Virus record (IMG/VR): IMGVR_UViG_3300005530_000004
Location: 1-64,000 of that record
Length of the DNA stretch: 64,000 bases
Origin: a virus
Reading direction: 5' to 3' (one strand)
In this document: one piece after another, positions 1,588 through 63,217 of the stretch
Numbering within the stretch: position 1 is the first letter of the stretch
How the letters are laid out: each line of letters opens with the position of its first letter
The notes under the pieces: model-generated
What the model was told of the DNA's origin: nothing
Databases searched by the model: none
The model's input: the letters and a program-made list of their open reading frames with translations, nothing else
Translations under genes and position numbers: made by a program

Positions 1588-1800
1588 ATGTCAGTTCAAA
1601 TTAAAATAATTGAAGTTACAAGTAACGTACCTGCTCAGATTGAAAATTCTTTAAATGACTGGATAGATAATAGAGAGTTTAAGACCCTCGATATTCAACA
1701 TATTGTTGAATATAGCCCACCTAAGATTGGTACAAGAATTTATGTCTTGTATGAATTGCAAGAAGCATTTGTAGAAGAATTGCAAGAAGCCAGTGAATAA
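1588..1800 (+). CDS. small hypothetical protein (Cse60/DUF2758-like pattern)
   Basis: QIKIIE...IENSLNDWI...LDIQ...IYVLYE pattern. Confidence 0.45.
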   Translation: MSVQIKIIEVTSNVPAQIENSLNDWIDNREFKTLDIQHIVEYSPPKIGTRIYVLYELQEAFVEELQEASE

Positions 1801-26565: not shown

Positions 26566-26780
26566 AAAAGAGGAGATATAGAACATTAGCTAAATTATAT
26601 GGATGGACATTTGATGTAATAGCAAATATGACAGAGGAACAGCAAGACATAGCTTTAGAGGAAGACAAAGAAGAGGAAGGTTCTAACAACACTGACCCAA
26701 ATATTTTATCATTCAAAGATGATAGAGAATATCAAGCATATTTAGCTAATATATCTAATTCAAATGCCAATAAAAGATAA
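26083..26780 (+). CDS. tail assembly chaperone GT, -1 frameshift product
   Basis: -1 frame after the slippery site is open to TAA 26778-26780 and encodes YRTLAKLYGWTFDVIANMT. Confidence 0.75.
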
Positions 26781-32367: not shown

Positions 32368-32522
32368 TACAATAATTTAATTATTAAAATGCCAATAAAT
32401 AATAATTATTTAGCTCCTACTGTCCATCCGTCCACCTATCGCCGTCGTCGCCTAGGACGTTCGCCTAGGCGTCGATCCGATGGACACCTAACCATCGGCC
32501 CTACCTAGACTTAGCTCGCCTA

Positions 32523-32560
32523 TTGACGCCGTAGGGACTGACAGTATATACTGTCAGTCC
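32523..32560 (+). promoter_or_regulatory. sigma70-like promoter overlapped by a perfect 26-bp palindrome
   Basis: TTGACG-18-TATACT; GGACTGACAGTATATACTGTCAGTCC at 32535-32560. Confidence 0.65.
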
Positions 32561-32722
32561 GCCGAGCCATGCGGACTGCCCCCTAGGCCGACCAGCACAG
32601 CGCAGCAAGGCAAAACAATAAATATCTAACAATAAAATAACCTTCTCAACTCTTTTCTCTCGATTTCCCCATTGCTTCTTTTTCACCGCAGAAATATCTA
32701 ATAAATTTTCTGCCACAATAAA

Positions 32723-38785: not shown

Positions 38786-41662
38786 ATGTCCTCAATAAAT
38801 CTTGAGAATGTAAATGTACTCGCAGAATTTGAGCATTATAAAATAAAATTTGAATTTACTGGTGACTCCGATGAGTTAAAGACTACTTGTCCATTTCATT
38901 TGGATGAAAATCCTTCTTGCTTTGTTAATATAAGCAAGAAATCTTTTTGCTGCCATACCGCCGGGTGTGAAAAGCACGGCGAGATTATATCATTTCTTGC
39001 AGCAAAGACCAAAATATCTCGTGCGCAAATTGTAATTGAATTAGCACAGAGATATTCTCTTGATGGCGAAGAACAACAAGTAATTGATTTTCGTACTGTA
39101 GAAAGATTCTACGCTACGGAAATGCCAGAGATATTGCGCAATGAACTCTATAAAAGAGGAATCACAGACGAAGATATTAAGTTTCATAGAATAGGTTATG
39201 ATATATCAACAAAAAGAATTACAATACCTATTCGCAATCGTGAAGGTTTATTTGTTAATGTTCGCAAATATTTACCTGGCGCACCTGGAGCAGAAAAATT
39301 CAAAAATAGCAAAGGGCACGGTAAAGTAAGATTATGTCCTGTAGAACAATTAAAATATGAAACACTAATACTTTGTGGGGGAGAAATAAAAGCATTTGTT
39401 GCTGCAAGGCTAGCTAATCCACATAATGTTGGCGCAATTAGTGCAACTTGCGGAGAAGATAATTGGTCCAAAGAACTTACTGAAAACTTTATTGGTAAGC
39501 ATATAATTATATGCTTTGATATTGATGAGGCAGGTAAAAATGCTGCTTTGTTACGTGCAAGAATATTGTACAAAGTAGCTGCAAGCGTTAGAATTCTAAC
39601 GCTGCCGTTAAGCAGAGATAAATATCCAAAAGGCGATATAAATGATTACGTAGGACAAGAAGGCAAAACTGATATAATCGAATTATTATCTAATGAAGAA
39701 CTGTGCAAAGTATATGCACCAGTATTTACTAAGATATTAGATAATACAGAAGAGCCAGTTAAACTGCACTTATCGGAAGCTATTGCAGCCAAGAATGTTG
39801 GAAGTAGAATACAAATAAGCTCTGTTTTATCTAGCATAGATACAGCACCATTTGTTATTCCTAAAAATACATTTGCTTCGTGCGATCGCTCTCAAAAAGT
39901 ATGTAATATTTGTTCTATCTTTAGAAATAAAGAGAATGATTTATATGACCTAAATCCAGAAAGTAGTAATCTACTAGAGCTTGTGCATTCGAGAAAAAAT
40001 GCACATAGAGATGCTTTAATGGAATCATTGGGCATACCTAAAAAATGTCCGATTGTTGAATTCCATACAAACAATTTCTATAATTATGAAGATGCAAGAA
40101 TCTCTCCGCAGCTTGAAATTACAGATCGAGCTACAGATAGATTCTTACAGCCAAGTTTAATATTGTCTGATGATACAAATAAACTTGAACTAAATGAATC
40201 TTATGAACTTACCGGCAGAAATTGGCCGCATCCTCATTCACAACAATCTACGTTAATATTGTCTGAATATAAACAGACTACAGATGCTCTTAGTAATTAT
40301 AAACTAACGGATGAATATAAAGAAAAGCTAAAAATATTTCAGCCAGAGAACGACATTAATGACAAGTTAAATTCCATATATGCAGATTTATCCAGCAATG
40401 TAACAAGAATATTTGCTAGAGAACCTTTGCATTTAGCTGTTGACTTAGCATTTCATTCACCATTATTCTTGAACTTCGATAAAGAGCAAGTAAAAGGTTG
40501 GCTTGAAATATTAATTCTCGGAGATTCTGCGCAAGGTAAATCAAAAGTAAGTACAGGTCTTCGAGAATTTTATGGTCTCGGTGAAAAAATAGAAAGTAAA
40601 AATGCAACTATTGCTGGATTACTAGGTGGACTTCAAAAAACCGGCGATAGATGGTTTGTTACTTGGGGAATATTCCCTAACATGGATAAAAGACTTGTTA
40701 TCCTTGAAGAATTAAAAGGGATGCCGCAAGAAACATTTGCTAAATTAACGGATATGCGAAGTAGTGGGCTTGCAGAAATACCAAAAATTGAAAAACGAAG
40801 AACTCACGCAAGAACTAGACTAATTGCAATATCAAATACTAGATCAGGAAGAGAGTTAGCTGGATATGTTTATGGAGTTAAAGCTGTAGAAGAGTTAATT
40901 GGAAGTATAGAAGATGTAAGAAGGTTTGACTTAGCATTAATATTGTCTAATAAAGATGTTCCTCAAGAATTAATCAATATACCTTCTGAAAAACGAGAGA
41001 ACATCGAGCATAAATATACAAGTGATTTATGCAGAAATTTAATATTGTGGGCATGGACCGCAGAATGTAATTTTGACTTAGAAGCAGTAGAATTAATATT
41101 CAGTGCTGCAAATGAACTACCAAACTTATTTCACGATTCTATACCATTAATAGATAAAGGCTCAACTAGACATAAAATAGCCAGACTCGCAGCGGCATTG
41201 GCTGCAAGGTTATTTTCACATTGTGAAACTGGAAACTACAATATACTTGTCAAGAAGATTCATGTTGAGCATATAATTAAGTTTATAAAAGAAGTATACT
41301 CTACAGCATCTTTTGGCTACGATAAATACACCGAAGCAATAATAGAGTCTGGTAGACTGCTTGACGAGAAACAAATCATCCATGAATTTACAAATATGGA
41401 TGATCCAAAAGCTTTCTGTAGAAAATTACTTAACACTAATAGTATGGATCAAGTTGATGTTGCAGATTTCTCCGGATCAGATAGAGAAACAGCAAATAAT
41501 CTTGTAGGTATGTTAGTAAGAAAGAATGCAATATTTAGAGCTGGTGGAAGATATTTCAAAAATCCAGAGTTCATTACCAAATTAAGATATTGGGAAGGTA
41601 ACGGCGTCTTAAATACTAAACCAGACTACCTAAAGAAAAAGAAACCAGAGGAGAAATTCTGA
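38786..41662 (+). CDS. primase-helicase: CHC2 Zn finger + Toprim + MCM-family helicase
   Basis: CPFHLDENPSC..CHTAGC; ICFDIDEAG; KGDINDY; GDSAQGKS; LVILEELKGM; RRFDL. Confidence 0.9.
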   Translation: MSSINLENVNVLAEFEHYKIKFEFTGDSDELKTTCPFHLDENPSCFVNISKKSFCCHTAGCEKHGEIISFLAAKTKISRAQIVIELAQRYSLDGEEQQVIDFRTVERFYATEMPEILRNELYKRGITDEDIKFHRIGYDISTKRITIPIRNREGLFVNVRKYLPGAPGAEKFKNSKGHGKVRLCPVEQLKYETLILCGGEIKAFVAARLANPHNVGAISATCGEDNWSKELTENFIGKHIIICFDIDEAGKNAALLRARILYKVAASVRILTLPLSRDKYPKGDINDYVGQEGKTDIIELLSNEELCKVYAPVFTKILDNTEEPVKLHLSEAIAAKNVGSRIQISSVLSSIDTAPFVIPKNTFASCDRSQKVCNICSIFRNKENDLYDLNPESSNLLELVHSRKNAHRDALMESLGIPKKCPIVEFHTNNFYNYEDARISPQLEITDRATDRFLQPSLILSDDTNKLELNESYELTGRNWPHPHSQQSTLILSEYKQTTDALSNYKLTDEYKEKLKIFQPENDINDKLNSIYADLSSNVTRIFAREPLHLAVDLAFHSPLFLNFDKEQVKGWLEILILGDSAQGKSKVSTGLREFYGLGEKIESKNATIAGLLGGLQKTGDRWFVTWGIFPNMDKRLVILEELKGMPQETFAKLTDMRSSGLAEIPKIEKRRTHARTRLIAISNTRSGRELAGYVYGVKAVEELIGSIEDVRRFDLALILSNKDVPQELINIPSEKRENIEHKYTSDLCRNLILWAWTAECNFDLEAVELIFSAANELPNLFHDSIPLIDKGSTRHKIARLAAALAARLFSHCETGNYNILVKKIHVEHIIKFIKEVYSTASFGYDKYTEAIIESGRLLDEKQIIHEFTNMDDPKAFCRKLLNTNSMDQVDVADFSGSDRETANNLVGMLVRKNAIFRAGGRYFKNPEFITKLRYWEGNGVLNTKPDYLKKKKPEEKF
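41635..41660 (+). repeat. 26-bp direct repeat, copy 1 (copy 2 at 42147-42172)
   Basis: GAAAAAGAAACCAGAGGAGAAATTCT identical in both. Confidence 0.9.
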
Positions 41663-43406: not shown

Positions 43407-45665
43407 ATGAGCGAGCCAGCACAGCAGCAATCCTTATCAGATATATTTGAAGAATTTGATAATATATTTGAGAAGAAAAAACGAAAGAAAAAAGATGTAT
43501 TCACTAAAACAATATCTGTAAAAGAAATGGAGGCTTCGCATGATATTAGATTTGCACAAGCTGCTTCTACTTCTACTTCTACTTCTACTTCTACTTCTAT
43601 TCCTAAAAGCAACGGAGGTTTAATTTGTTACAACGATTCTTATGAACGAGTTCTTCGAGGAATAATTGGTGCTGAGACAATATTTCTCGATTTAGAAACT
43701 GGCAGCTATGATCCTAAAATAACTTCATTAGATCCTTGGAAAAATTGTTGGCCAATAGGTGTAGCAATTTGTGTAGAAGAATATGGGCCAGCTTACTATA
43801 TTCCAATAAATAAAGACAACGAAAATAAAGTCTATGATCTAATATTTGCAATATTTCACCATCCAAACTGCAAGCGGTGGGTAAATCACAACGTAAAATA
43901 TGATGCTCACGTATTAAAGAATTCTGGTGGAATTACACTACCGTATTCGGTGCAGTTAATCGACACTGTAACATTGTCTAAACTTATTGATTCAGATAGA
44001 TTTAGATATGGCTTGGATATATTATCAAAAGATTGGTTAGACGAAGATATATCACAATATGAACTTGCATTCAAACCATACTTACATAAAAATAAAGACT
44101 ACTCTGTAATACCAGTAGATATTATTGGGCCATATGCTTGTCAAGATGTTATTACAAATAGGAAGTTATATAAATATATTTGTGAGAATCTCCCAGAAGA
44201 GTGCTATTTTGTTCGTGATATAGAAATAGAATTGACAAGAGTTCTATTTGATATTGAACAAAATGGAATGCGAATAGATCCAGACAGTTTGCAGATAACA
44301 GAGGTTCTTAACTATAAAAAACTAATAGAAATAGAAGAAGAACTAGAACGCATTACGGGCAGGATTTTCCGTCCGCATACAAATGCAGATTGCTTTGACA
44401 TTATATGTAACTTTTATGGTTTACCAGTTCTTAAATGGACAAATCAATCTGATGATGAAGAAGTAGAAGTAGATGAAGCGGAAAATGAAGATGAAGGAAA
44501 AAAAGGAAAAGGTGGTCCAAGTTTCGACAAGTTTGCTTTAACAGCATATTTATCTCATCCGACTGTACTAACAAACCCAAATATAAGACGGGTAATAGAA
44601 TTAATATCTGAATACAGGAAGAAAAATACATTCAACAATCTATTTGTTAAAAAATATAGGGAATTGGCAAGTGGAAATTTGTTACATCCATCTTACAATC
44701 AATGTGTACGATCTGGAAGATTGTCCTGCAAGCATCCAAATGCGCAGCAATTAAATGAAGAAGCTAAAGAGTTGATATTGCCGTATGGTAATGAAGGTAA
44801 TGAAGTATTCGTATCGTATGACTTTTCGCAAATTGAATATAGGACAATTGCACATTATATTGAAAGTCCATTATTATTAGATAAATATAATAATGATCCA
44901 GACGTTGATTTCCATGAGTTCGTTGCTGAATTAGTTAGAGAACAAACTGGCCTTGAAGGAATGACAAGAAAGGGTGGTAAAACTTTAAACTTCGGTTTAG
45001 GTTTTAATATGGGGAAGGCAAAGCTATTAAAATCTTTGCGTGGCGTTAAAGATTTAATGGACAGTTTATCAAAAGAAATAGATGAAGCCGGGGTTCCTGA
45101 AAACGAAAAAGAATCTGTATTTGCACGAGAATCAGAAAAACGCGCAGAGGCAGTATTCAATGCTTATCATAGAACTTTTCCAGAAATGAAAAGAACGTCT
45201 CGACAAGCACAAGCAGTTTGCGAACAACGTGGATACATCAGAAATCTATACAATAGACGAAGACACTTAAATAAGCAATTTGCATATAAAGCTTTCAATA
45301 CAATAAATCAAGCCAGTGCTGCTGATTTGATGAAGGCAGCTATGGTTAAAATTGGTAAATTACTTAGAGATTGTAATGAAAATAGCAGCAAAATCCGTAT
45401 TGTTGCTGATGTTCACGATGAAATATTATTCTCCATGCCAAAGCAGCTTGCAGAAGATGAACGAATTACACATACTATTGCATATATTCTTGAACATCCT
45501 ACTTTACCGAATAATATAGATGGAACAGAAAAGAAGTTGCTTGTTCCAATTCGTGTCTCAATGGGGATAGGTAATAATTGGAAAGAAGCCAGTAAATCTG
45601 CCAGAGTTTACAATTACGATAAAGCAGTAAGCGTTGAAGAGTTTAAGGAGATAATCAATGGATAA
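43407..45665 (+). CDS. polA: DNA polymerase family A with 3'-5' exonuclease
   Basis: FLDLET, HNVKYD, YACQD, SGRLSCKHPNAQQ, YDFSQIEYR, RKGGKTLNFG, NTINQASAAD, VHDEI. Confidence 0.96.
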   Translation: MSEPAQQQSLSDIFEEFDNIFEKKKRKKKDVFTKTISVKEMEASHDIRFAQAASTSTSTSTSTSIPKSNGGLICYNDSYERVLRGIIGAETIFLDLETGSYDPKITSLDPWKNCWPIGVAICVEEYGPAYYIPINKDNENKVYDLIFAIFHHPNCKRWVNHNVKYDAHVLKNSGGITLPYSVQLIDTVTLSKLIDSDRFRYGLDILSKDWLDEDISQYELAFKPYLHKNKDYSVIPVDIIGPYACQDVITNRKLYKYICENLPEECYFVRDIEIELTRVLFDIEQNGMRIDPDSLQITEVLNYKKLIEIEEELERITGRIFRPHTNADCFDIICNFYGLPVLKWTNQSDDEEVEVDEAENEDEGKKGKGGPSFDKFALTAYLSHPTVLTNPNIRRVIELISEYRKKNTFNNLFVKKYRELASGNLLHPSYNQCVRSGRLSCKHPNAQQLNEEAKELILPYGNEGNEVFVSYDFSQIEYRTIAHYIESPLLLDKYNNDPDVDFHEFVAELVREQTGLEGMTRKGGKTLNFGLGFNMGKAKLLKSLRGVKDLMDSLSKEIDEAGVPENEKESVFARESEKRAEAVFNAYHRTFPEMKRTSRQAQAVCEQRGYIRNLYNRRRHLNKQFAYKAFNTINQASAADLMKAAMVKIGKLLRDCNENSSKIRIVADVHDEILFSMPKQLAEDERITHTIAYILEHPTLPNNIDGTEKKLLVPIRVSMGIGNNWKEASKSARVYNYDKAVSVEEFKEIING

Positions 45666-45855
45666 ACAAAATCAGCAATATAAAGCATATCTCGGCGATA
45701 GCGTCTACATAGATTTCGATGGATATGGTTTAGTATTAACGACTGAAAATGGTATAGAAACAACAAATAGAATTTATCTTGAACCAGAAGTATTCAATAA
45801 ATTAGAAGTGTATGTTAAAGAATTAAAGAAACAATTATTAGATGCGAGAGATTAA
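45658..45855 (+). CDS. hypothetical phage protein
   Basis: YLGDSVY.DFDG..LTTENG..NRIYLEPEV. Confidence 0.75.
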   Translation: MDKQNQQYKAYLGDSVYIDFDGYGLVLTTENGIETTNRIYLEPEVFNKLEVYVKELKKQLLDARD

Positions 45856-45915
45856 ATAATGTATTTTTAAGTTTTTGGGGAAAGCTAGGGAATTAGCCGA
45901 TATATGTACACTATA

Positions 45916-45929
45916 TGTACATTTGTACA
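45916..45929. promoter_or_regulatory. TGTAC-N4-GTACA palindromic operator candidate
   Basis: lies within a cluster of four TGTACA (45905-45944); second copy at 63465-63478. Confidence 0.4.
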
Positions 45930-46107
45930 CTATTTTACTGTACATTTGTCTATCTATCAAGAAAATAATATTTGGAAAATAAGAAAAATTTCCTGCTAAA
46001 CAAAGTCAATTTTCTCGGGATTTTCAACAAAATATATTTGACAACGCAAGTATCATACCGGGAATGGTATTTGCGTCGCGGGCGCGGCCGCGCGAAGTAA
46101 CACTGTC

Positions 46108-46200
46108 TCGGCGGATCGTCGGGCGACCGACGATCCGCCGACGATCCGCCGACGATCCGCCGACGATTCGGCCCGCTGCGCTCGATTAAATCGAGCGCAG
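46108..46200 (+). repeat. GC-rich hairpins and 11-bp tandem repeat (CCGACGATCCG x4)
   Basis: 15-bp stem with GCGA loop at 46108-46141; repeats at 46127-46170; 11-bp stem at 46176-46200. Confidence 0.85.
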
Positions 46201-46240
46201 CACTTGCAAAAGATTCCTCAAAATAATCGTGGCAAGAGTA

Positions 46241-46269
46241 TTGACTTGCCGAATGAATCATGGAATACT
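46241..46269 (+). promoter_or_regulatory. putative sigma70 early promoter
   Basis: TTGACT-17-AATACT with TG extended -10. Confidence 0.5.
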
Positions 46270-46288
46270 TCACCTAGTTGATTGATTG

Positions 46289-46302
46289 TGCTCTTTGAAA
46301 AC
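46289..46302 (+). promoter_or_regulatory. rrn-type boxA antitermination element
   Basis: TGCTCTTTGAAAAC about 15 nt after the predicted +1; resembles boxA (E. coli TGCTCTTTAACA). Confidence 0.6.
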
Positions 46303-46375
46303 TTGGTTAGCGCGGCAACGGTTCGACGGAGCTAGCTCCGTCCCTGCCTAATCAAGCTTGCAAGCCGCGTACACA

Positions 46376-46762
46376 ACCACTAGGCGTTTTATTGTGCGGC
46401 GTCGTGTTCAACAGGGCAACAGGGCAATGGTCGCCAAACAACACGACAACCACAATAAAACGGAGAGAACAAAGTGAACAAATACTTTGTAATTTGGACC
46501 TACGTTGCGAATTACGGAAACTTGGAAGTCTTCGCCGATAGTGCGGAAGAAGCTTCCAAGATCGTGCTTAGCTCTTTCAGCACTGATTTCTCGGAACGCG
46601 GAACGGTCTATGTTTTTTCCGAGCCGGAGTACATTTACAACGGCCGCGAAGAAACGAAAAAGCGGAAGCAACAGAAAATCCAACAGGATATTGATAACAG
46701 ACTCAGCCGATAAGCAACACGACAACACGACATGGACGCCGCACAATAAAACGCCTAGTGGT
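46376..46762 (+). repeat. 28-bp perfect inverted repeat enclosing gene 46474-46713
   Basis: 46376-46403 is the reverse complement of 46735-46762. Confidence 0.95.
46474..46713 (+). CDS. hypothetical early protein
   Basis: GGAG RBS + GTG; LEVFADSAEEA motif. Confidence 0.7.
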   Translation: MNKYFVIWTYVANYGNLEVFADSAEEASKIVLSSFSTDFSERGTVYVFSEPEYIYNGREETKKRKQQKIQQDIDNRLSR

Positions 46763-46768
46763 AACAAG

Positions 46769-47133
46769 TAGCTCACCAGTGATTTAATCCTGCCCTGTTG
46801 ATTGTGTATCAAACGCCAAACAACACGACAACACGACAACACGAAGGATACAATAAAATGACATTGGCTAAAAAGCGTTTCGACGACAATGAAATCGTGA
46901 AAGAACACGAGCTGCCCTATCGACCATTCCGTGTCTCAGCCTCTTTGGAGAGTTTTTTTCTGCGGCTTGATGCCGCACAAATGACGCGCGAGAAATTAGA
47001 GTCTATCCAGACTCTAATCTGGCAAAAGCGCAAGGTAGAACACGATCTATGTTCCGCCGTGCAAAATGTTTTGAGGGGGCAATCTCGATAACAGGGCAAC
47101 ATAACAGGGCAGGATTAAATCACTGATGAGCTA
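46769..47133 (+). repeat. 32-bp inverted repeat enclosing gene 46858-47091
   Basis: 46769-46800 vs 47102-47133; one C.A mismatch and a terminal G.U. Confidence 0.95.
46858..47091 (+). CDS. hypothetical early protein
   Basis: AAGGA + ACAATAAAATG start context. Confidence 0.65.
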   Translation: MTLAKKRFDDNEIVKEHELPYRPFRVSASLESFFLRLDAAQMTREKLESIQTLIWQKRKVEHDLCSAVQNVLRGQSR

Positions 47134-47148
47134 GCAATCGTGCAACTA

Positions 47149-47194
47149 ATTCGGTAAATTCTCGCGCCGAATAAACTAACAATAAATGCGAGAA
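47149..47194 (+). promoter_or_regulatory. H-type RNA pseudoknot in leader
   Basis: S1 ATTCGGT/GCCGAAT, S2 TTCTCGC/GCGAGAA. Confidence 0.6.
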
Positions 47195-47219
47195 AACACT
47201 TTGTTTTGGAGACTGTACA

Positions 47220-47909
47220 GTGTCAACCACCCACAAGAATGCCCCCGCCAATCGTGACTCCGCGAAAGTTTCTGATCGGCCAGCCGAACAGAAAACCGAA
47301 ACGGCCACGACGACGGAAAAGAGGCGTGGTCGTCCGGCCGGAAACGGCGAGAAAAAGCAAACCGGGAAAATCAAATATCCCGGAGTTGCGAACGGGGAAA
47401 AACTCTCCGTCGTGCCGACGGATTTCGACCCCGCCAAACACAAGCGATTATCTGCGGACAATTTCACTTCACCCGCGCTTTTTGACGCGCACAAGGCGAA
47501 GCATTCCAAGCCGCGAAATTTCCACCCATTGCTTTTGAATGAGGCGGGCGAACCGGAAAACAAATTGTCGGAATTCCCTTCTGATGTTTCGGTCGAAGTG
47601 AGTTACGATTATTCGCTTAACGGCGAAAAGATCGTCGCTTTCCGCCCGCGTCATTTTTCGGATCGTCGTGCGCTTGCAAAAGCTCTGGTTCCCGCGCTGC
47701 AAAAGCAAATCGCCGCGCTGGAAAAAATCAGCACGATGACGGACGATCAAATCGAAAAACTCGGCCGCAAGGAAGAGTTGAAGCGCGGCATCGAGAAGAA
47801 AATCAAGGAAGCGACCGGATCGACAATCAGCATGGAGATGCTCGAAAAGATGCTCGCAACTCTTCCGCCGGAGATGCAAGAAAAGTATGCTGCGGCGACG
47901 GCGGGCTAG
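47220..47909 (+). CDS. basic early protein with AT-hook-like motif
   Basis: GGAG RBS + GTG; KRRGRPAG; GC-rich codons; followed by a terminator. Confidence 0.8.
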   Translation: MSTTHKNAPANRDSAKVSDRPAEQKTETATTTEKRRGRPAGNGEKKQTGKIKYPGVANGEKLSVVPTDFDPAKHKRLSADNFTSPALFDAHKAKHSKPRNFHPLLLNEAGEPENKLSEFPSDVSVEVSYDYSLNGEKIVAFRPRHFSDRRALAKALVPALQKQIAALEKISTMTDDQIEKLGRKEELKRGIEKKIKEATGSTISMEMLEKMLATLPPEMQEKYAAATAG

Positions 47910-47947
47910 TTGCTTGCGAATTACTTGTTTGGCGACAAGTTTTCTCG

Positions 47948-47982
47948 ACCCCTACGAAACAATTGTTTCGTAGGGGTTTTTT
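47948..47982 (+). terminator. intrinsic terminator
   Basis: ACCCCTACGAAAC-AATT-GTTTCGTAGGGGT followed by a T tract. Confidence 0.85.
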
Positions 47983-48002
47983 CGTGCGCTGAAATAATAC
48001 TT

Positions 48003-48108
48003 GCGTCGTCCAGGGAGCGAGCCAGCGTCGTCCAGGGAGCGAGCCAGCGTCGTCCAGGGAGCGAGCCAGCGTCGTCCAGGGAGCGAGCCAGCGTCGTCCA
48101 GGGAGCGA
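48003..48108 (+). repeat. 22-bp tandem repeat x4.8 (GCGTCGTCCAGGGAGCGAGCCA)
   Basis: perfect copies at 48003, 48025, 48047 and 48069; partial copy at 48091. Confidence 0.95.
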
Positions 48109-48122
48109 ATCCTAACAGCAGC

Positions 48123-48151
48123 TTGACGCGCTGCCGCGCTGTAGTTACACT
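48123..48151 (+). promoter_or_regulatory. sigma70 promoter
   Basis: TTGACG-17-TACACT. Confidence 0.7.
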
Positions 48152-48193
48152 GGCCGCACCGGGGCAATAGGCGCACCATGCGTCAAATAAAAA

Positions 48194-48252
48194 TATTTAT
48201 TTTCTCATTTAGCGGCGAGAAAAATAGATACAGTGAACAATAAAATGCCGCT
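48194..48252 (+). promoter_or_regulatory. H-type RNA pseudoknot in leader (second copy of the architecture)
   Basis: S1 TTTTCTC/GAGAAAA (extendable), S2 AGCGGC/GCCGCT. Confidence 0.6.
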
Positions 48253-48473
48253 TTTTCCACTGCACACTTCTACTCCTCTTTTTTGGAGAAAATATAATCA
48301 AGCAATAATCCGACAATCCGACAATCCGACAATTCGACAATTATTTTTTTCTCTGAACAATAAAACATGCTGTAACATTGGAGTTGCTGCAAGCCGATCG
48401 GATCGACCAAAATAAATCATTCACGCAAATAATTCCTACGTAGGAATTAAAAATTGAAGGGATACAAAAGACA

Positions 48474-48920
48474 ATGGAAATTACAGTAGAAAAAATTGCC
48501 AATTTACTCTTAAATCCAGAAAATCGTGATAAGATGCGAGAAACGAAAAATAGGGCTTGTGTAGAAATAGAAGAAGCCGCTAAGCAAATAGCTTTCCAGC
48601 GTAAAAAAATCGACGATGGTTTGATGCGACTCGCAGCCGCGAAAACGGACAAGGAAAATCCTAAGCATATCGAATCATATATAAAAAGCTTCAAGGAACG
48701 TCTTGAACGTGCTAAAAAAGAAATTGCAGAATGTCAAAAGCAAATTGAGATTCTGCAAGCTAGACTACCATCGGAAGCGCGGGCCGCTAAGGTAGAAAGT
48801 ATCGAGCAAGAGCTAAAGCAATATGAAAGCAATGTTAATGCGCTGATTTCGCAAAAGGGAGAATGGACTAGGTTGCGAGATTTAATTTCGCAAGCCGAAG
48901 AATTAAGAAAATTGTCTTGA
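48474..48920 (+). CDS. coiled-coil hypothetical protein
   Basis: ORF; heptad pattern. Confidence 0.75.
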   Translation: MEITVEKIANLLLNPENRDKMRETKNRACVEIEEAAKQIAFQRKKIDDGLMRLAAAKTDKENPKHIESYIKSFKERLERAKKEIAECQKQIEILQARLPSEARAAKVESIEQELKQYESNVNALISQKGEWTRLRDLISQAEELRKLS

Positions 48921-49073
48921 ATATCTTGAAAACAGAAACAAAAACAAAATTCGAGAACCCGACATAATTCCGTACAGTAGTGTACAAAATTGGTACGGAA
49001 TTTTGCCGCGTTTTCTGTCGAGTGGTATCGACGGCGCAGCACAATAAAACTTGTTTTGAAGAAAAGGAAGAAG

Positions 49074-49241
49074 ATGACATACAATCAATTACTAGATTGC
49101 ATTGAAGCAATGACATTAGAGCAAAGAGAGTGTGATGTTACAGTAGAAATAGACGATGAATGCTATCCAGCTACACTATATATTTCTGACGATAACCACG
49201 ACTCTTTAGAAAAGGATCACCCTGTTTTGAAAGCAATGTAA
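49074..49241 (+). CDS. small hypothetical phage protein
   Basis: AAGGA RBS; MTYNQLL..LEQ..CDVTV..HPVL. Confidence 0.7.
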   Translation: MTYNQLLDCIEAMTLEQRECDVTVEIDDECYPATLYISDDNHDSLEKDHPVLKAM

Positions 49242-49243
49242 AT

Positions 49244-49296
49244 AACAGCCATGTTTCCGCCGCAACATAAATGTTGCGGCGGTGGCGTAGGTTGTT
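49244..49296 (+). repeat. conserved intergenic hairpin element, copy 1
   Basis: AACAGCCATGTTTCCG-[stem]-CGGTGGCGTAGGTTGTT. Confidence 0.9.
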
Positions 49297-49374
49297 TGCT
49301 ATTTATGTTGTACTAGCAAGCCTACAATTCCGGCAAGTTGGAATTAAAAGAATACTTGCAATGAATCTTTTCCA

Positions 49375-49845
49375 ATGAGGGAAGTTGTGATGATCGCAAC
49401 AAAAAAGACGAATGGACGTTTCTCACGTTTCTCGGAACAGGATGCAAATGATCTAGCAACGAATCTTGCTAAATCTCTTTCGCATCAATTCTCTTTCCGC
49501 GAAAGCAAAGCTCTCGAAAAGAGAGTTGCAGCGTCTCCAGAGACGACAACAAAAAAGCTTCGATCTGGAAGCAAACTCTTTCAAATGCGGACAATTCTTT
49601 CGTCCGCCAAACGCGATAAATCTTTTCGCGTGAATCTGCAAGCCACAGAGCTTGCAGTAAAACTGTTCTCTCGCATGTTTTCTCGAAAACTTTGGCGAGA
49701 GAATATTGTTTATTCTCGTCGCGCCTGGTTGAACGGTTTTCCGGTCAACTATGACCAGCAAGATTTAATGCTGATTTGTCGTCGCGTTGCGAGAAGAATT
49801 GCGAGAAGAGTTGCTTCTAGCAATTGCTATGAAAATAGCAAATAG
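49375..49845 (+). CDS. basic hypothetical protein
   Basis: ORF; Arg/Lys-rich. Confidence 0.65.
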   Translation: MREVVMIATKKTNGRFSRFSEQDANDLATNLAKSLSHQFSFRESKALEKRVAASPETTTKKLRSGSKLFQMRTILSSAKRDKSFRVNLQATELAVKLFSRMFSRKLWRENIVYSRRAWLNGFPVNYDQQDLMLICRRVARRIARRVASSNCYENSK

Positions 49846-49855
49846 CTGATTCTGC

Positions 49856-49919
49856 AGACAGTCATGTCTCCGTGCTGTTATTTAACAGATAAATAACAGC
49901 ACGGTGCCGTAGATTGTTT
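49856..49919 (+). repeat. conserved intergenic hairpin element, copy 2
   Basis: AGACAGTCATGTCTCCG-[stem]-CGGTGCCGTAGATTGTTT. Confidence 0.9.
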
Positions 49920-49961
49920 TCTAGTTTCTGACACAATAAATTGAAGAAGGAGAGAAAGAAA

Positions 49962-50720
49962 ATGCAATTCGACAATGAAAAATTAAAAAAGATTATTGAG
50001 AAGCATCGAAAATATTATCTTAATGAAGAAGGTGGAGAACGTGCAGATTTGTCCGGTGCAAATTTGTTTGGTGCAGATTTGTCACGTGCAAATTTGTCCG
50101 GTGCAGATTTGTCCGGTGCAAATTTGTCGCGTGCAAATTTGTTTGGTGCAAATTTGTTTGGTGCAGATTTGTTTGGTGCAAATTTGTCTGGTGCAGATTT
50201 GTCGCGCGCAAATTTGTCTGATGCAAATTTGTCGCGTGCAATTTTGTCCGGTGCAAATTTGTCGCGTGCAAATTTGTTTGGTGCAAATTTGTCCGGTGCA
50301 GATTTGTCGCGTGCAAATTTGTTTGGTGCAAATTTGTCCGGTGCAGATTTGTTTGGTGCAAATTTGTTTGGTGCAAATTTGTTTGGTGCAGATTTGTCCG
50401 GTGCAAATTTGTTTGGTGCAAACTTATCCAGTGCAAAATTAAATGAAGAAACCAATATTACAGGAGAGTCTTGGAAGGAATATTTAGAAAAAGTTGTTCC
50501 GGCTTTACTGACAGCTGGCGGAAAAACAATCCAAGAAATTGTAGAATCTGGCTGTTGGAATTGCCATGAATGGCAAAATTGTCCAATGCACATCGCATTT
50601 GGAATTAATAATAAAGAGGACGGGCCAATTTTATTAAGGCCTAGGATCAAACAATTTATTCAATTATTTGATTTTAATTTGATCCCATGTCCGGTTGTTC
50701 CATTTACTTCTGTTAATTAA
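49962..50720 (+). CDS. pentapeptide repeat protein
   Basis: ~28 A(D/N)L(S/F)(G/R) repeats; Cys/His C-terminal domain. Confidence 0.92.
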
Positions 50721-50721
50721 C

Positions 50722-50782
50722 AAACAATCATGTTTCCGCGCCACGATATTTTTATATCGTGGCGCGATGACGTAGATTGTTT
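50722..50782 (+). repeat. conserved intergenic hairpin element, copy 3
   Basis: AAACAATCATGTTTCCG-[stem]-CGATGACGTAGATTGTTT. Confidence 0.9.
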
Positions 50783-50844
50783 TCTGGTTCTAGTTTCTAG
50801 TGGTTTCTGATTTCTGGCACAATAAAAGAAATGGAGATTGACAA

Positions 50845-51081
50845 ATGAAAGAAAAGATTGAATGTTTACTTCCGGATGATGGAAAAACTTGCGTCCGGCT
50901 ACGCGGAAAGAATGGTAACTTTGTTACCATTTTGCCTTGTGGAACCGACGTAAATGGAAATGTTACAAATGTCGATTTGTGCAAACCGAATGGAGAAGTG
51001 TTGTATTGTGGAGTAGATATTGAACTGGTCAATATCTTTTGTGAAGAACTCGGATTGGAAAGAATCTTGCAGGAGAAGTGA
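50845..51081 (+). CDS. hypothetical protein
   Basis: GGAG RBS. Confidence 0.65.
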   Translation: MKEKIECLLPDDGKTCVRLRGKNGNFVTILPCGTDVNGNVTNVDLCKPNGEVLYCGVDIELVNIFCEELGLERILQEK

Positions 51082-51086
51082 AATAA

Positions 51087-51788
51087 ATGAATCGCGATGA
51101 ATTGCTTGACACAATAAAAAGATTGCTTGCGCTTTCTAGCTCATCAAATGAGAATGAAAGCGCTTCGGCGCTTGCGCGAGCAAATAAATTGATGATGGAA
51201 CATAATATTTCCATGTTTGATGTTAATAATGAAACATCAACATCAAATTATGATGAAATAGATGTTTATACCGCCGGGCGAGCATCATCAAAAGATCCGT
51301 ATTTGTGCAGTATTCTGCAAGATTACTTCTTTGTGAAAGCGATTTATATTCCATCCGACGGTTATCAACGAAAAACCACGTTGAAATTTTTCGGTGATAA
51401 AGTAAATATTCAAATTGCTGTATATGTCTATAAAGTATTGGATATACTTTTTAGTGTTTACGCAGATGTAAACAAGATTCAAGTAAAACATCGGCGAGCA
51501 TATTATCAAGGATTATGCCACGGATTTAAGCGAAAACTTAAAGAAGAACGTGATGCAATGAATAGAAACATTGCAAGTAGTGGAACAGCACTTGTCTTAA
51601 TTGATAAGGCGCTTGTCAAAGCATATAATAACAGATTTCCGACCACTAAAACAAAATCTGTTTCTAAAATGACAATGAATGACCGTGCTTACAATCAAGG
51701 AATTGTTGACGCAAAAGAAATAAACTTGCGTCAAGGTATAGAAGGTACAAAAGGCACCACACAACCAAAGATTCAAGATTGGAGTTGA
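51087..51788 (+). CDS. DUF2786-family protein
   Basis: TIKRLLALSSSSNENESASALARANKLMMEHNI; AYYQG; AYNQG. Confidence 0.85.
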   Translation: MNRDELLDTIKRLLALSSSSNENESASALARANKLMMEHNISMFDVNNETSTSNYDEIDVYTAGRASSKDPYLCSILQDYFFVKAIYIPSDGYQRKTTLKFFGDKVNIQIAVYVYKVLDILFSVYADVNKIQVKHRRAYYQGLCHGFKRKLKEERDAMNRNIASSGTALVLIDKALVKAYNNRFPTTKTKSVSKMTMNDRAYNQGIVDAKEINLRQGIEGTKGTTQPKIQDWS

Positions 51789-51790
51789 TA

Positions 51791-51847
51791 AAACAATCAT
51801 GTCTCCGCCGTGCAGAATATTCTGCACGGCGACGGCGTAGGTTGTTT
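51791..51847 (+). repeat. conserved intergenic hairpin element, copy 4
   Basis: AAACAATCATGTCTCCG-[stem]-CGACGGCGTAGGTTGTTT. Confidence 0.9.
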
Positions 51848-51880
51848 CTGGTTTCTGACACAATAAATGTAAGGGAGAAG

Positions 51881-52096
51881 ATGGTTATGTCTAATTCAAT
51901 TCATTATTTCGGAATAACAATTAACAGAGAGGGTGATATAGTAGTAGATGATATTACTATATTTAGTCATATAAGAGAAACAGCAAAATATTTAGGGTAT
52001 CGAACACAAGATATACACCGAGATTCTCGTCTCCCTCAACTTGTAATTCTAATTGGCAATCAAAAAGATGCGATCGCCTTTATTGAATTGATATAG
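51881..52096 (+). CDS. hypothetical protein
   Basis: AAGGGAG RBS before ATG 51881. Confidence 0.6.
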   Translation: MVMSNSIHYFGITINREGDIVVDDITIFSHIRETAKYLGYRTQDIHRDSRLPQLVILIGNQKDAIAFIELI

Positions 52097-52174
52097 GGGT
52101 GTAGAATTTCGCGGATTATGGCTAAAAAGATATTGCGTTATAGTTTCTGGTTTCTGATACAATAAATTGGAGAA

Positions 52175-52411
52175 GTGAAACAAATGGAAGAAAAAGAAAA
52201 ATCAAGATTAGCAATTGGATTCAATTGTGAACAAAATTACACTCGTTCAATTTGGACTTTCAGCACTGATCCACAAGAAGTTGCTAATCAATTTTCTATT
52301 GATGGTAATTCTACCACGTTAGATCAAATTCTACTTGTTTCTAATTCACAAGACAAAAATAATGGACCGATTGTAGTTAAGCATTGGAATCTCGACAAGG
52401 ACTATAAATAA
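52175..52411 (+). CDS. hypothetical protein
   Basis: GGAG RBS. Confidence 0.6.
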   Translation: MKQMEEKEKSRLAIGFNCEQNYTRSIWTFSTDPQEVANQFSIDGNSTTLDQILLVSNSQDKNNGPIVVKHWNLDKDYK

Positions 52412-52866
52412 TGGCAATTAAAACCCCATATTTAATTCAAAGATGCACAATACAGAAATTTAGTGGTAATCAAAAAGTTAGTGAATTTTTACAGTTTGAT
52501 TACATGGGGTCGGCTGAATTTGAATTTGGTGCATTACCTAAATGTCTTCGAGAAATATTTTCTATTAAAAATGACTTAAAAATCTTTAGAGTATTATATC
52601 TTAAAGATCTATATGTTCTTTGCACCGAGAGTAATATAAGAGAAATTGAAGTTTATTTATCAAGATTATGTGGATTAGGAGATATCCTAATCTTAAAAGA
52701 GCCAATCAGTATAGAAAAACTATTAAAAAAAGAAAAACCATATAGACGAGATAATTTTTGGATTGATATTGAAAATTATTTTTGTTTCTCTTTTGATAAA
52801 AAAGCTCTGCAAAATTTTAGAATTGCATTAGACAATTCCATTTCTTATATGGATAAGAATAAGTAG
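52411..52866 (+). CDS. conserved hypothetical phage protein
   Basis: YLIQR..FDYMGSAEFEFGALPK..FWIDIEN. Confidence 0.8.
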   Translation: MAIKTPYLIQRCTIQKFSGNQKVSEFLQFDYMGSAEFEFGALPKCLREIFSIKNDLKIFRVLYLKDLYVLCTESNIREIEVYLSRLCGLGDILILKEPISIEKLLKKEKPYRRDNFWIDIENYFCFSFDKKALQNFRIALDNSISYMDKNK

Positions 52867-52871
52867 ACAAC

Positions 52872-53225
52872 ATGCACATTCGCGCTGTAATTGGCGGAAG
52901 ATATACTAATGTTGTTTTCGATATTCCTGTTCCCATTGTAGATTGGCTATGGGAAGACTTACGCGAGAAGATGTTGCAGAAAAGACGAATAAATGAAGAT
53001 GCAATAAAACTAAAATTGGCAAGAGAAACATATGAAAAAGCTGCAAAGCTGCAAGCTGAAATTGCTGCCGATTGTGCAGTAAAGTTTGCAGAGTATTCAG
53101 AAATTGATTCTGGATTGAAAGAAGCAGAAAAAGCGATGGGCGGAAGAGGAAAAAAACCGCGAGTGCGGTCGAGAAAAACTAATTACAAAAAGAAGTCAAT
53201 GTATAAATTGAACGGAGAGAATTGA
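52872..53225 (+). CDS. hypothetical protein
   Basis: ORF. Confidence 0.6.
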   Translation: MHIRAVIGGRYTNVVFDIPVPIVDWLWEDLREKMLQKRRINEDAIKLKLARETYEKAAKLQAEIAADCAVKFAEYSEIDSGLKEAEKAMGGRGKKPRVRSRKTNYKKKSMYKLNGEN

Positions 53226-53226
53226 G

Positions 53227-53427
53227 ATGTCTAAGATGATACTAACTGAATCAGACTTGAAATTACTTGAAAAATACAATGTTACACTTGATGGCGCAAT
53301 AACTGAAGCCCCAGCACATTTTCAAAATAGTGATGCAGCGCTCGCTGGATATTGGTATGCAATGTACAAACAACTCAAAAAAGAGTTTGATTATTACAAA
53401 AAGTTAATTGAAGATGGTAGAAAATAG
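53227..53427 (+). CDS. hypothetical protein
   Basis: GGAG RBS. Confidence 0.6.
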   Translation: MSKMILTESDLKLLEKYNVTLDGAITEAPAHFQNSDAALAGYWYAMYKQLKKEFDYYKKLIEDGRK

Positions 53428-53462
53428 TCGATGATTTGAAATAACAATAAACAAATTTAATT

Positions 53463-53512
53463 TAATTCCCTAGATAATTATTATCTAGGGAATTATTTTT
53501 ATTTTTATTTTT
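53463..53512 (+). terminator. intrinsic terminator ending the early unit
   Basis: TAATTCCCTAGATAAT/ATTATCTAGGGAATTA followed by T tracts. Confidence 0.8.
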
Positions 53513-53557
53513 GGACTAGTGTACAAGAAATTTTGCCGCTTTTGAAGGTGTGGAACG

Positions 53558-53881
53558 ATGGTCATTTATAGTGAGGGTTTAACGATGGTCGTTTGGAAAT
53601 ATGATATTTTATTAAAGTCTGGAATTCAAAAGATAAGGATGCCTAAAGGTGCAAAAGTATTAACAGCACAAGTGCAAAGAGAAAATGATGGTTATGACGA
53701 TATTAAAATCTGGTGCTTAATTGATAATGGACAAGCAGAATTAGAATTAGTAGATCGACATTTTATTTTACGTGGAACTGGTCATTCATTCGCAGTTTCA
53801 AATAGTTATCCATTAAATTATATTGGAACAGTGCAAATTGATTATAGTGTTTGGCATATATTTGAAATTATAGGGGTGTGA
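53558..53881 (+). CDS. conserved hypothetical phage protein
   Basis: VWKY..MPKGAKVL..IW..GTGH..YIGTVQ..VWHIFE. Confidence 0.8.
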   Translation: MVIYSEGLTMVVWKYDILLKSGIQKIRMPKGAKVLTAQVQRENDGYDDIKIWCLIDNGQAELELVDRHFILRGTGHSFAVSNSYPLNYIGTVQIDYSVWHIFEIIGV

Positions 53882-54912
53882 GGAATATCAGCAGGAATAT
53901 CAATATGAAAATTAAATCAGAAATATGGGATGGCATTACACCATCTTTATATGCACACCTAAAAATAGACGGTGCATTTTTAAGGATAAAAAAGGATGAA
54001 CAAGGTGAGATTAAATGTTTATCCAGTATTGACACAGATTTAACTACGGCGATTACTAACTGCAAGCCTAGGTGGTTAGTTAATTTATACAAGAATATGC
54101 CGTTCAATTCTTGTATACTAGGCGAATTATTTTACTATGATACAGTAAATAGAAAAGGGCTTCCTGCAAGCTATATAAAGACCGGCTTAGCAAACGGTGA
54201 AAATTATTATGATGAAAACTCAACAGATATAACAGTAAGTAAGAAGTTAATGAAGGGGCAAGGACAACAGCAACAGGAACAGCAACAATATCAATTATGT
54301 TTCAGTGGATTTGCAATTGAATATGGATTTCCTGGAATAGATCACAATAGTGAATTAGACCAAGTAGAAATTAAATTAATGGCTCTAGGAATAGATGTTC
54401 CGCCAGCAATATCATTTAGATATAGTGAAGAATTTCCTAGCAAAGAAGAATTACTTGATAAGTATCTACAGAGAGATTATTTCAAAAATCGAACAAAATT
54501 TGATTATTCTACTCTTGCAGAAGGGTGGATGCTTAAAAGTGGTAATTTGACTGGTTGGAAAAAAGTTAAAAAAGAAAATACAATAGATTGTTTCATTGCT
54601 GGTTATATTCCAGGAAAAGGAAAATATTATGGAAAAGTAGGCAGCTTAATTTGTTGTGTATATAATGCCGCTGGTGCAGCTATGCAAATAGCTACGGCTG
54701 GTGGATTTAATGATGAGATAAGGGACTGGTTGACAGAACAATTTAAGAGCAATAAAGACGAATTGATTGGACAAGTAATAGAAATTCAATATCAATTTGT
54801 TGCAACGCAAGGTAGGTTGCGACACCCAAGATTTAAAAATTGGCGAGATGATAAGCTTGCAGAAGAATGCTTAACTTCGCAAGATGAAGAATTGGTCAAA
54901 TATTGGGGGTGA
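53878..54912 (+). CDS. ATP-dependent DNA ligase
   Basis: LKIDG, LGEL, EGWMLK, WKKVK, GKGKYYGKVGSL, LRHPRF..RDDK. Confidence 0.9.
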   Translation: MRNISRNINMKIKSEIWDGITPSLYAHLKIDGAFLRIKKDEQGEIKCLSSIDTDLTTAITNCKPRWLVNLYKNMPFNSCILGELFYYDTVNRKGLPASYIKTGLANGENYYDENSTDITVSKKLMKGQGQQQQEQQQYQLCFSGFAIEYGFPGIDHNSELDQVEIKLMALGIDVPPAISFRYSEEFPSKEELLDKYLQRDYFKNRTKFDYSTLAEGWMLKSGNLTGWKKVKKENTIDCFIAGYIPGKGKYYGKVGSLICCVYNAAGAAMQIATAGGFNDEIRDWLTEQFKSNKDELIGQVIEIQYQFVATQGRLRHPRFKNWRDDKLAEECLTSQDEELVKYWG

Positions 54913-59304: not shown

Positions 59305-59361
59305 TTAAGATTTAACTGTTTAACTGTTTAACTGTTTAACCACTTTGTAAGGAGATTTGAC

Positions 59362-60217: not shown

Positions 60218-60532
60218 ATGAAGAAAAGTAACACAAAAGATTACAAAAGTTATTTGTCTGATGAGGATTTGGATAAACTAGACTTAGGGAATTCAAATGA
60301 AGATTTATGTAGATTTAAAGAAGAATATCGCACACTTCGCAAAAACTTTATTAAGATTATCGGTAAGCTGCAAGGCCGTGTAGAGTTGGAGCGAGCAAAA
60401 GATATTGTTATGGACCATTTTAAATGTACTGCTGATGGAGCAATGAAACATTTATCTAAAGTTGCCAGTAGTAAAAATATAACAATCGAAGAAGTTGCTA
60501 AAATGATTGTTACATCGCTCTGCAAGGATTGA
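60218..60532 (+). CDS. ANTAR-domain RNA-binding protein
   Basis: coiled coil + LQGRVELERAKDIVM..TADGAMKHLSKVASSKNITIEEVAKMIV. Confidence 0.8.
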   Translation: MKKSNTKDYKSYLSDEDLDKLDLGNSNEDLCRFKEEYRTLRKNFIKIIGKLQGRVELERAKDIVMDHFKCTADGAMKHLSKVASSKNITIEEVAKMIVTSLCKD

Positions 60533-63116: not shown

Positions 63117-63169
63117 TTTAGCATATTATTAGTGTGATTTTGCCGGTTTTGCCCAGTCTCGGCCACCCG

Positions 63170-63217
63170 ATCTCGCCGCAAGTGTCTGCCAGCACAGCAC
63201 TTGCGGCGAGATTTTTT
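63170..63217 (+). terminator. intrinsic terminator-like hairpin
   Basis: ATCTCGCCGCAAGTG/CACTTGCGGCGAGAT followed by TTTTT. Confidence 0.7.

Follow-up and report, generated by a model that had tools for sequence, protein, structure and literature searches.

Hairpin elements with a conserved base and a variable top at the ends of early genes in an uncultured siphovirus

In a 64,000-nucleotide stretch of viral DNA (positions 1 to 64,000 of the IMG/VR record IMGVR_UViG_3300005530_000004, hereafter the window), four copies of a long hairpin element punctuate a series of small early genes between positions 49244 and 51847. The elements belong to a real and conserved family of sense-strand hairpins. 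Five members are known, from two uncultured phages that are only distantly related, and the fifth is located on a metagenome contig designated L194. The family has in common a conserved, covarying and sense-strand-specific structure at gene ends. Most likely, the elements are a signal for RNA processing or termination rather than a new kind of system. Between these two, we lean tentatively, and at somewhat less than even confidence, towards a 22-27-bp double-stranded RNA punctuation signal that is cut by host RNase III, in preference to termination.

The conserved base and the variable top

The four copies are located on the plus strand at 49244-49296, 49856-49919, 50722-50782 and 51791-51847 (copies 1 to 4) and start 2, 10, 1 and 2 nt, respectively, after a stop codon. 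Coordinates and motif counts thereby bear out a preliminary description of this DNA, which had placed four copies at these sites 1-10 nt past stop codons. The 5'-arm motif CATGTYTCCG is found exactly at 49250, 49863, 50729 and 51798, with one unrelated minus-strand match at 57505, and the 3'-arm motif CGTAGRTTGTTT exactly at 49286, 49908, 50771 and 51836, a result equalled in none of 100 shuffles. Both arms combined gave four forward and no reverse matches across the entire 74,872-bp genome, and none in a backwards control.

Upon RNA folding, each copy forms a single long hairpin with an energy of -35.0, -32.2, -36.2 and -34.8 kcal/mol for copies 1 to 4 (z -6.9, -7.2, -8.8 and -7.5), not equalled by any of 200 shuffles, and a genome-wide 80-nt sliding fold places the elements among the strongest local structures of the genome. 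The outermost part is an A/U-rich base of 7-8 bp, in which AAACARYC is paired with GRUUGUUU, followed inwards by a bulged A on the 3' side of the stem and, above the bulge, by a 5-bp helix (AUGUY/RYGVCGU) with many G.U pairs. An internal loop of 1x1 or 2x2 nucleotides (U/U in copy 1) separates this wobble helix from the top, which is perfectly paired over 11, 15, 13 and 11 bp in copies 1 to 4, begins with C/G pairs and has no sequence in common between copies. Over the five copies, the tops comprise 60 bp with neither a wobble pair nor a mismatch, and the lower 13 bp contain many wobbles; for random stems, 18% wobble pairs have been assumed (PMC6212723). As judged from the comparison of the copies, the base of ~30 nt is shown to be under sequence selection, even across phages with proteins that are ~40% identical, and the top appears to be selected for pairing alone. 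The tops may differ since identical ones would mispair within one transcript and recombine in DNA.

In the five sequences, 96.5% of the base-stem cells are paired, compared to 34-59% with the partners slid by 1-3 columns. Three pairs are altered on both sides, with the observed covariation score reached by one of 500 shuffles, every one-sided change in the base stem results in a G.U pair, and a single U.G pair does not vary at all. As the G.U pairs become A.C mismatches on the other strand, the full stem is restricted to the sense strand; the plus strand folds the whole stem in five of five copies and the minus strand folds the top only, 4.6-10.6 kcal/mol more weakly. It follows that the extended structure is one of sense RNA or, as single-stranded DNA, of the top strand. 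A covariance model that represents the base stems and, of the top, the first four pairs scored the four copies at 73-76 bits on the plus strand (75.6, 72.9, 76 and 74.8 bits), their reverse strands at 22-34 bits and the copy of L194 at 41 bits (E 2e-7), and found nothing convincing elsewhere in the genome; a match at 52862-52922 (12.6 bits, E 0.09) lies within an open reading frame (ORF) and was taken as chance. The preliminary description had proposed to build such a model and had predicted a sense-strand structure with G.U pairs on the plus strand, a bulged A, a base constrained in sequence and a top constrained in structure only, and the strand folds, the covariation and the comparison of five copies agree with it in each respect.

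The same description had considered the element to be new and had named a search in Rfam as a check. With Rfam 15, no family reached its gathering threshold on the elements and just two tRNAs passed in the window; between 45800 and 52600, the best models on the elements were miRNA and 3'UTR models with 18-24 bits versus thresholds of 45-245 (E at least 0.18). An exact-pattern scan of IMG/VR gave four matches, all hairpin-less and hence attributed to chance, and a pattern scan of one genome per GTDB species gave 42 matches, none with a hairpin. Among six matches in a metagenome scan, five are chance and the sixth is the full element on L194. The word CGTAGG as such is not enriched in the genome (9 and 5 copies per strand versus ~6 expected). 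Relatives have also been approached through the family-A DNA polymerase (PolA, 43407-45665), which as a single query found nothing in IMG/VR and as an alignment query identified 63 loci (1.1 Mb) with an identity of at most 45%. Neither in these loci nor in MW202657, the closest phage in GenBank, was an element found by regular expression with three mismatches per arm or by covariance model. Closer PolA relatives, 60-75% identical, are P0002-P0009, and an alignment query with the ORF at 52872-53225 found nothing in IMG/VR.

Probable processing or termination at the gene ends

Intercistronic RNase III sites are established in the early RNA of coliphage T7, where the cut is said, with reference to Dunn and Studier, to leave the upstream message with a stable hairpin and to free the downstream leader. 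For the early RNA of the Bacillus phage SP82, RNase III sites are on record (Panganiban & Whiteley 1983, cited in PMC4838370, references 19 and 20). By analogy, the element would work most like these intercistronic sites of T7 and SP82, with which it shares long intercistronic hairpins in early RNA, helices of approximately two turns with a small internal loop or bulge, conservation of the sequence near the presumed cut within one phage, and a 3' hairpin that would stabilise the upstream message. Unlike in T7 and SP82, the tops are perfect and different in every copy and the base is conserved beyond the requirement of RNase III; for a comparison of sequence, Rfam contains no model of those sites. 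The analogy to RNase III recognition drawn in the preliminary description is in this sense plausible.

In the proposed mechanism, the element would act in cis, as a sense-strand RNA structure flagging the 3' end of a small gene unit, early or delayed-early. Its conserved lower part lengthens a plain hairpin of 10-15 bp to a helix of 22-27 bp that contains a single small internal loop, and host RNase III would cut this helix in or beside the conserved lower stem, near CGUAG. Upon cutting, the upstream mRNA would end in a very stable perfect hairpin barring 3' exonucleases, and the downstream U-rich leader, with UUGUUU, GUUUCUG repeats, ACAAUAAA and the Shine-Dalgarno (SD) sequence, would be freed for translation. 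That the element acts as RNA, the identity of the enzyme as RNase III and the location of the cut are what we infer from these features.

Several observations are in favour of processing. The total helix spans 22-27 bp in five of five copies, counting in the bulge and the small internal loop (22 bp in L194 with its 10-bp top), a length at or above the ~20-22 bp that characterise RNase III sites; RNase III accommodates ~22 bp (PMC6212723). Processing is favoured because the 13-bp lower stem is what brings every copy to this size. It is also favoured because the stem is weakest beside the U-rich tail, where it is bulged as well, unlike in the phage's own terminators. These canonical terminators, at 47947-47978 and 53463-53495 (consensus scan, plus strand) and at ~63169-63216 (sliding fold), display a G+C-rich stem base and, immediately after it, a T run. 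In the elements, on the other hand, 10-11 nt separate the G+C-rich top from the UUGUUU tract, with a bulged A/U- and G.U-rich helix in between. No G+C-rich stem thus runs straight into a U run, and the consensus scan called none of the four copies.

These same features bear on the main alternative, possible though somewhat less likely than processing, that the elements are the terminator half of terminator/promoter cassettes similar to the promoter-early stem-loops (PeSLs) and morons. The hairpin together with its UUGUUUUCU tail would then stop or attenuate host RNA polymerase, and the next box, TTTCTG(N)CACAATAAA, would act as an extended -10 (TGn plus NACAAT) early or middle promoter for the following unit. 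Against the weak lower stem have to be set the perfect Watson-Crick tops of 10-15 bp, which resemble the canonical terminators of the phage, and the order stop codon, hairpin, box, SD and ATG, which is the layout of PeSLs in T4-type phages (PMC2839356, PMC4122927). With PeSL cassettes and lambdoid morons the elements have indeed in common a composite motif between the stop codon and the next SD, a stem-loop beside a conserved promoter-like box, and a region of small ORFans with a content that differs between relatives, here in L194 (PMC2839356, PMC4122927). Different from the elements, PeSL promoters are near-consensus sigma-70 promoters (-35, N17, -10), compared to only TGn plus NACAAT here, perhaps inside RNA, and PeSL stem-loops are short G/C runs of tested terminator function, compared to a 22-27-bp stem with a conserved imperfect base. 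Terminators, moreover, need no conserved sequence, though the base of the elements is invariant across distant phages.

The nature of the box as a promoter or not decides between the two readings. If the box is a promoter, the hairpins would be terminators and not processing sites in polycistronic RNA. The box TTTCTG(N)NACAATAAA (a sequence also given as TTTCTGRYACAATAAA) follows copies 2-4, always on the plus strand: as TTTCTAGTTTCTGACACAATAAA after copy 2 (49918-49940, then SD and ATG at 49962; family D3), as an expanded series of (G)TTTCTR heptamers, with TTTCTGGCACAATAAA at its end, after copy 3 (50776-50826, then SD and ATG at 50845), and as TTTCTGGTTTCTGACACAATAAA after copy 4 (51845-51867, then SD and ATG at 51881/51887). 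It recurs without a preceding hairpin at 52144-52166 (box at 52151, ATG at 52184), confirming the preliminary description, which had recognised the leader after copies 2-4 and, hairpin-less, at ~52150. A copy absent from that description, TTTCTGCCACAATAAA at 32707-32722 (plus strand), adjoins the helicase ATG at 32723. The distance between hairpin and box varies from 0 to ~24 nt and is filled by extra GTTTCTR heptamers.

Read as TcTGaCACAAT or TcTGaTACAAT, the box suits TGn plus a -10 hexamer (CACAAT/TACAAT) with the key A and T in place; it occurs with and without a hairpin, also before the first replication gene, and its identity over 16-23 nt is typical of a phage promoter class. On these grounds, the leader box may be an extended -10 type promoter instead. 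A simple sigma-70 scan, however, did not call the box, and no -35 is present at a constant spacing; the variable hairpin-box distance equally argues against a terminator/promoter cassette. Two promoter variants were also rejected, an ECF-type promoter in minus-strand orientation at the box, with the right spacing in copy 4 alone, and a CGTAGR-N17/18-CACAAT promoter, which is true for copies 2 and 4 and not for copies 1 and 3. As a search pattern in IMG/VR the box was uninformative, with >100 single unrelated matches.

The octamer ACAATAAA within the box is clustered on the plus strand in the early and replication regions between 32614 and 53451, for example at 32714, 36710, 46849 and 48236. 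It directly adjoins the ATG at 32723, 36719, 46858 and 48245, the starts of four ORFs without SD, among them the helicase, and transcription starting ~7 nt past NACAAT would miss these start codons. Furthermore, at four early sites the octamer is located within RNA contigs, 21-53 nt downstream of the contig starts. The octamer may thus serve as an RNA signal associated with starts and not as a promoter. A comparable arrangement is the SAS/ESAS of Cluster K mycobacteriophages (PMC3203893), a short motif directly upstream of many non-structural start codons, sometimes with an inverted repeat; the comparison concerns the ACAATAAA box and not the hairpin, and the mycobacteriophage motif is unrelated in sequence and comes from another host group.

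Over 45000-54000, contigs from three rhizosphere metatranscriptome runs cover 46406-46740, 46796-47109, 47130-47947, 48737-48903 and 49019-49210/49214. As their cover is uneven and that of a DNA run over the same region even, the contigs probably represent RNA and not contaminating DNA. Gene A (49074-49241, 55 amino acids), the unit that ends at copy 1, is expressed and the adjacent early region is transcribed. The contig 47130-47947 ends at the foot of the canonical terminator 47947-47978, a terminator that also contains CGTAGG and AAACAAT words. In two runs the contigs end at 49210 and 49214, ~30 nt before copy 1; no contig covers an element, and the absence of cover in 49215-54000 in the three RNA runs is taken as evidence for neither silence nor termination and gives at most a weak hint. 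It hints weakly at copy 1 as a transcript boundary, either by termination, as the terminator/promoter alternative would have it, or by processing with an unstable downstream product.

Upstream, two long inverted repeats each surround a small early gene (46376-46403 with 46735-46762, and 46769-46799 with 47103-47133; 28 and 31 nt), and at both the RNA contigs of three runs break and the DNA contig continues through. These breaks are consistent with active processing of double-stranded RNA, or RNase III-type excision of early genes; long-range duplexes are typical substrates of RNase III in Bacillus subtilis (PMC11780869). That early RNA of the phage appears to be processed at long duplexes is a further reason to favour processing at the elements. 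The most abundant RNA contig (depth 10-16), which ends at the canonical terminator, encodes a 229-amino-acid early protein (47220-47909, plus strand) that matches no family and contains an AT-hook-like motif, RGRP. Further downstream, a perfect palindrome, AATTCCTACGTAGGAATT (48431-48448, plus strand), contains CGTAGG directly upstream of the ribosome-binding site of the gene at 48474.

Several points weigh against processing by RNase III. The weak sequence preferences of the enzyme do not explain ~30 near-invariant nucleotides across distant phages. Downstream of copies 2-4, the 16-23-nt box resembles an extended -10 promoter (TcTGnCACAAT), and with an own promoter for each unit a terminator would be more natural. 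RNA contigs stop before copy 1 with none downstream, which suits termination at least equally well, and they are assembled contigs of 2-3x depth, carrying no end or strand information. The signals for a Firmicutes-like host are, moreover, indirect.

Proteins commonly recognise a bulged A that is flanked by wobble pairs. The near-invariant nucleotides would find an explanation if the elements were the binding site of a sequence-specific RNA-binding protein of the phage, such as an antiterminator, translational repressor or endonuclease, recognising the internal loop, the bulged A and CGUAG with the variable top as a mere clamp. Five copies that keep ~30 nt across phages with ~40% protein identity and leave the top free would suit such a site, and so would hairpin-less junctions in L194 that retain CGUAGG in a loop on a 5-6-bp stem. 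We consider it unlikely, though a real alternative; no candidate protein was found, most early ORFs have no family match, and the only RNA-binding protein recognised in the phage, with an ANTAR domain (60218-60532, plus strand; 104 amino acids; PF03861, 44 bits, E 2e-11), binds dual A1/G4 hexaloops that are absent from the elements. The target of ANTAR proteins is a pair of small hairpins with hexaloops A1/G4, the second of them overlapping a terminator's 5' arm (PMC3369931). As no such dual motif is located in or just 5' of any element, the ANTAR protein is by the known rule of its family not the partner of the element. On the other hand, three tandem TTTAACTGT units at 59312-59339 (plus strand), just upstream of a MazG-like gene at 59362, allow two possible 3-bp hairpins with ACUGUU hexaloops (A1, G4). 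By the pattern of the family target, these repeats are a candidate site for the ANTAR protein of the phage.

Gene turnover between two anchors in a distant relative

L194 is a 1,358-bp metagenome contig with 37% G+C, read on the minus strand. Its element has a 5' arm identical to that of copy 1 over 10 nt, a 3' arm identical over 17 nt and a 10-bp top of unrelated sequence; a C-to-U change in the base leads to a U.G pair. Two anchors on the contig are homologous to genes of the window, gene B (42% identity) and the ORF at 52872-53225 (35%). Between the anchors, seven genes in 3.0 kb in the window stand against three unrelated ORFs in ~0.7 kb in L194.

Element-derived sequence is present at every junction of L194. 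In junction J1, AACAATC is joined directly to GTAGGTTGTTT, leaving the two basal arms and no core; in J3, ACACGTAGG is flanked by AATCAA on the 5' side and TTGATT on the 3' side. Both J1 and J3 (1023-1100 and 38-100 in minus-strand reading) are hairpin-less, with CGUAGG placed in the loop of a 5-6-bp stem of the AACAA/TTGTT type, and in one of these mini versions the stop codon TAG falls within the motif. The elements of L194 are followed by the SD region of the next gene, UUAAGGAAAGG, with neither a ACAATAAA box nor a -10-like hexamer between elements and next SD, in disagreement with a terminator/promoter cassette. Because no promoter-like -10 is present there, transcription would read through in L194. 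As to a polycistronic transcript, the RNA contigs reach 49214 and not beyond, L194 has no promoter-like sequence before the next SD, and the window has a promoter-like box. Processing is favoured over termination also because L194 keeps CGUAGG and the basal arms at junctions without a terminator-like hairpin or promoter.

In this one relative, the region appears to be hyperplastic, with element-derived sequence at each junction. The preliminary description had suggested cassette boundaries that might act as homology joints for the shuffling of early genes, to be followed through the gene content between elements across relatives. One relative could be compared, and here the content between the anchors is entirely different and the junctions carry element sequence. 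This comparison supports the suggestion in one instance; exact shared stretches span only ~15-18 nt, and no joined or deleted forms are present in DNA contigs.

The turnover of genes also brings up a site acting at the DNA level, either a recombination site that folds as single-stranded DNA in the manner of attC or a homology joint through which single-gene cassettes enter and leave. As in integron attC sites, the central structure rather than its sequence is conserved, an imperfect base with an extrahelical base carries a variable terminal stem, the site is located right 3' of an ORF, and the fold is strand-specific. The 60 bp of the tops without G.U or mismatch are what would be expected if a DNA palindrome matters, and the wholly different genes between the anchors, together with element-derived sequence at every junction including one core-less copy, point in the same direction. 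The resemblance to attC is, however, architectural only. The arms read AAACAAYC and GRTTGTTTYC and not RYYYAAC/GTTRRRY, the consensus of the R''/R' cores, the complete genome is without an integrase (no PF00589 match, i.e. no tyrosine recombinase), and each unit has its own leader. In addition, variation in the base stem occurs only as G.U (G.T in DNA) on one strand, the DNA contigs show neither joints nor deleted forms (although contigs drop rare forms), and exact repeats between copies do not exceed ~18 nt. A DNA-level site is consequently judged highly improbable. REP/RAYT elements were equally rejected, on the features of the elements and with no scan of the genome for a RAYT/Y1 transposase gene: on the folding strand, GTAG comes after the hairpin on its 3' side, no sequence is common to the palindromes, and matching copies are absent from one genome per GTDB species.

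Hardly more probable, a dedicated nuclease or recombinase of the phage could act on the folded sense strand, be it RNA or single-stranded DNA, by recognising the base with its bulged A and CGUAG, and would both process transcripts and swap cassettes as an integrase-free counterpart of attC. Such a system would explain the variable tops consisting of Watson-Crick pairs only, the core-less junction in L194 and the complete turnover of genes between the anchors. On the features tested, the element falls outside the attC, ANTAR-target and REP classes; it departs from the promoter definition of PeSLs and from the consensus of intrinsic terminators, and is apparently an undescribed punctuation signal.

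Genome context and significance

The source record is a complete IMG/VR virus genome of 74,872 bp with 100-bp direct terminal repeats and 33% G+C, with the whole gene set on the plus strand. The phage is of the siphovirus type, with a large terminase (3010-4479), a tape-measure protein (26764-29313) and a primase/helicase (38786-41662) in addition to PolA, and its DNA is present in rhizosphere and soil metagenomes. The replication proteins of MW202657 are just 35-38% identical and its genome organisation differs. Indirect signs, namely a strong GGAG-type SD and relatives of the primase and of the pentapeptide-repeat protein in Bacillus and Listeria phages, suggest a Firmicutes-like host.

The units punctuated by the elements encode small proteins, and most of the early ORFs are without a family match. 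This applies to gene A upstream of copy 1 and to gene B (49390-49845, 151 amino acids), which precedes copy 2. Gene C (49962-50720), preceding copy 3, encodes a pentapeptide-repeat protein (PF00805, E 4e-40), and genes D (78 amino acids) and E (233 amino acids, DUF2786 and DUF7168) form a single unit at 50845-51788 that ends at copy 4. Gene F (51881-52096, 71 amino acids) is followed by the box without a hairpin. All six genes are on the plus strand.

Genes for the control of transcription have been taken as a point in favour of termination. They include, besides the ANTAR protein, a sigma factor (1793-2440, plus strand; Sigma70_r2 51.5 bits, plus r4) directly upstream of the packaging and structural genes, presumably a late-gene sigma. 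The ANTAR protein is without a sensor domain, and its encoding as a stand-alone protein by a phage seems unusual. No RNA polymerase gene was present among the ORFs scanned, and a phage-encoded RNase III gene was not found in the genome. Two islands of high G+C content, at 45900-48470 and 32400-32720, reach up to 49% compared to 33% for the genome, are non-coding or sparsely coding and contain strong hairpins and tandem repeats (11 nt x4 at 46116-46170, 22 nt x5 at 48003-48112 and 8 nt x3 at 48307-48338); they look like regulatory hubs or origins.

Early regions of phages are full of small unknown genes, and the partitioning of their expression has been detailed for few model phages only. If the element is a site of RNase III or of recognition by a protein, it would make the processing of mRNA in an uncultured lineage of soil phages accessible to testing and, equally, provide a ready set of non-repetitive insulator hairpins. 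If, on the other hand, the elements are recombination joints, the PeSL idea of regulatory cassettes that drive gene shuffling would reach beyond the T4-like myoviruses to a siphovirus.

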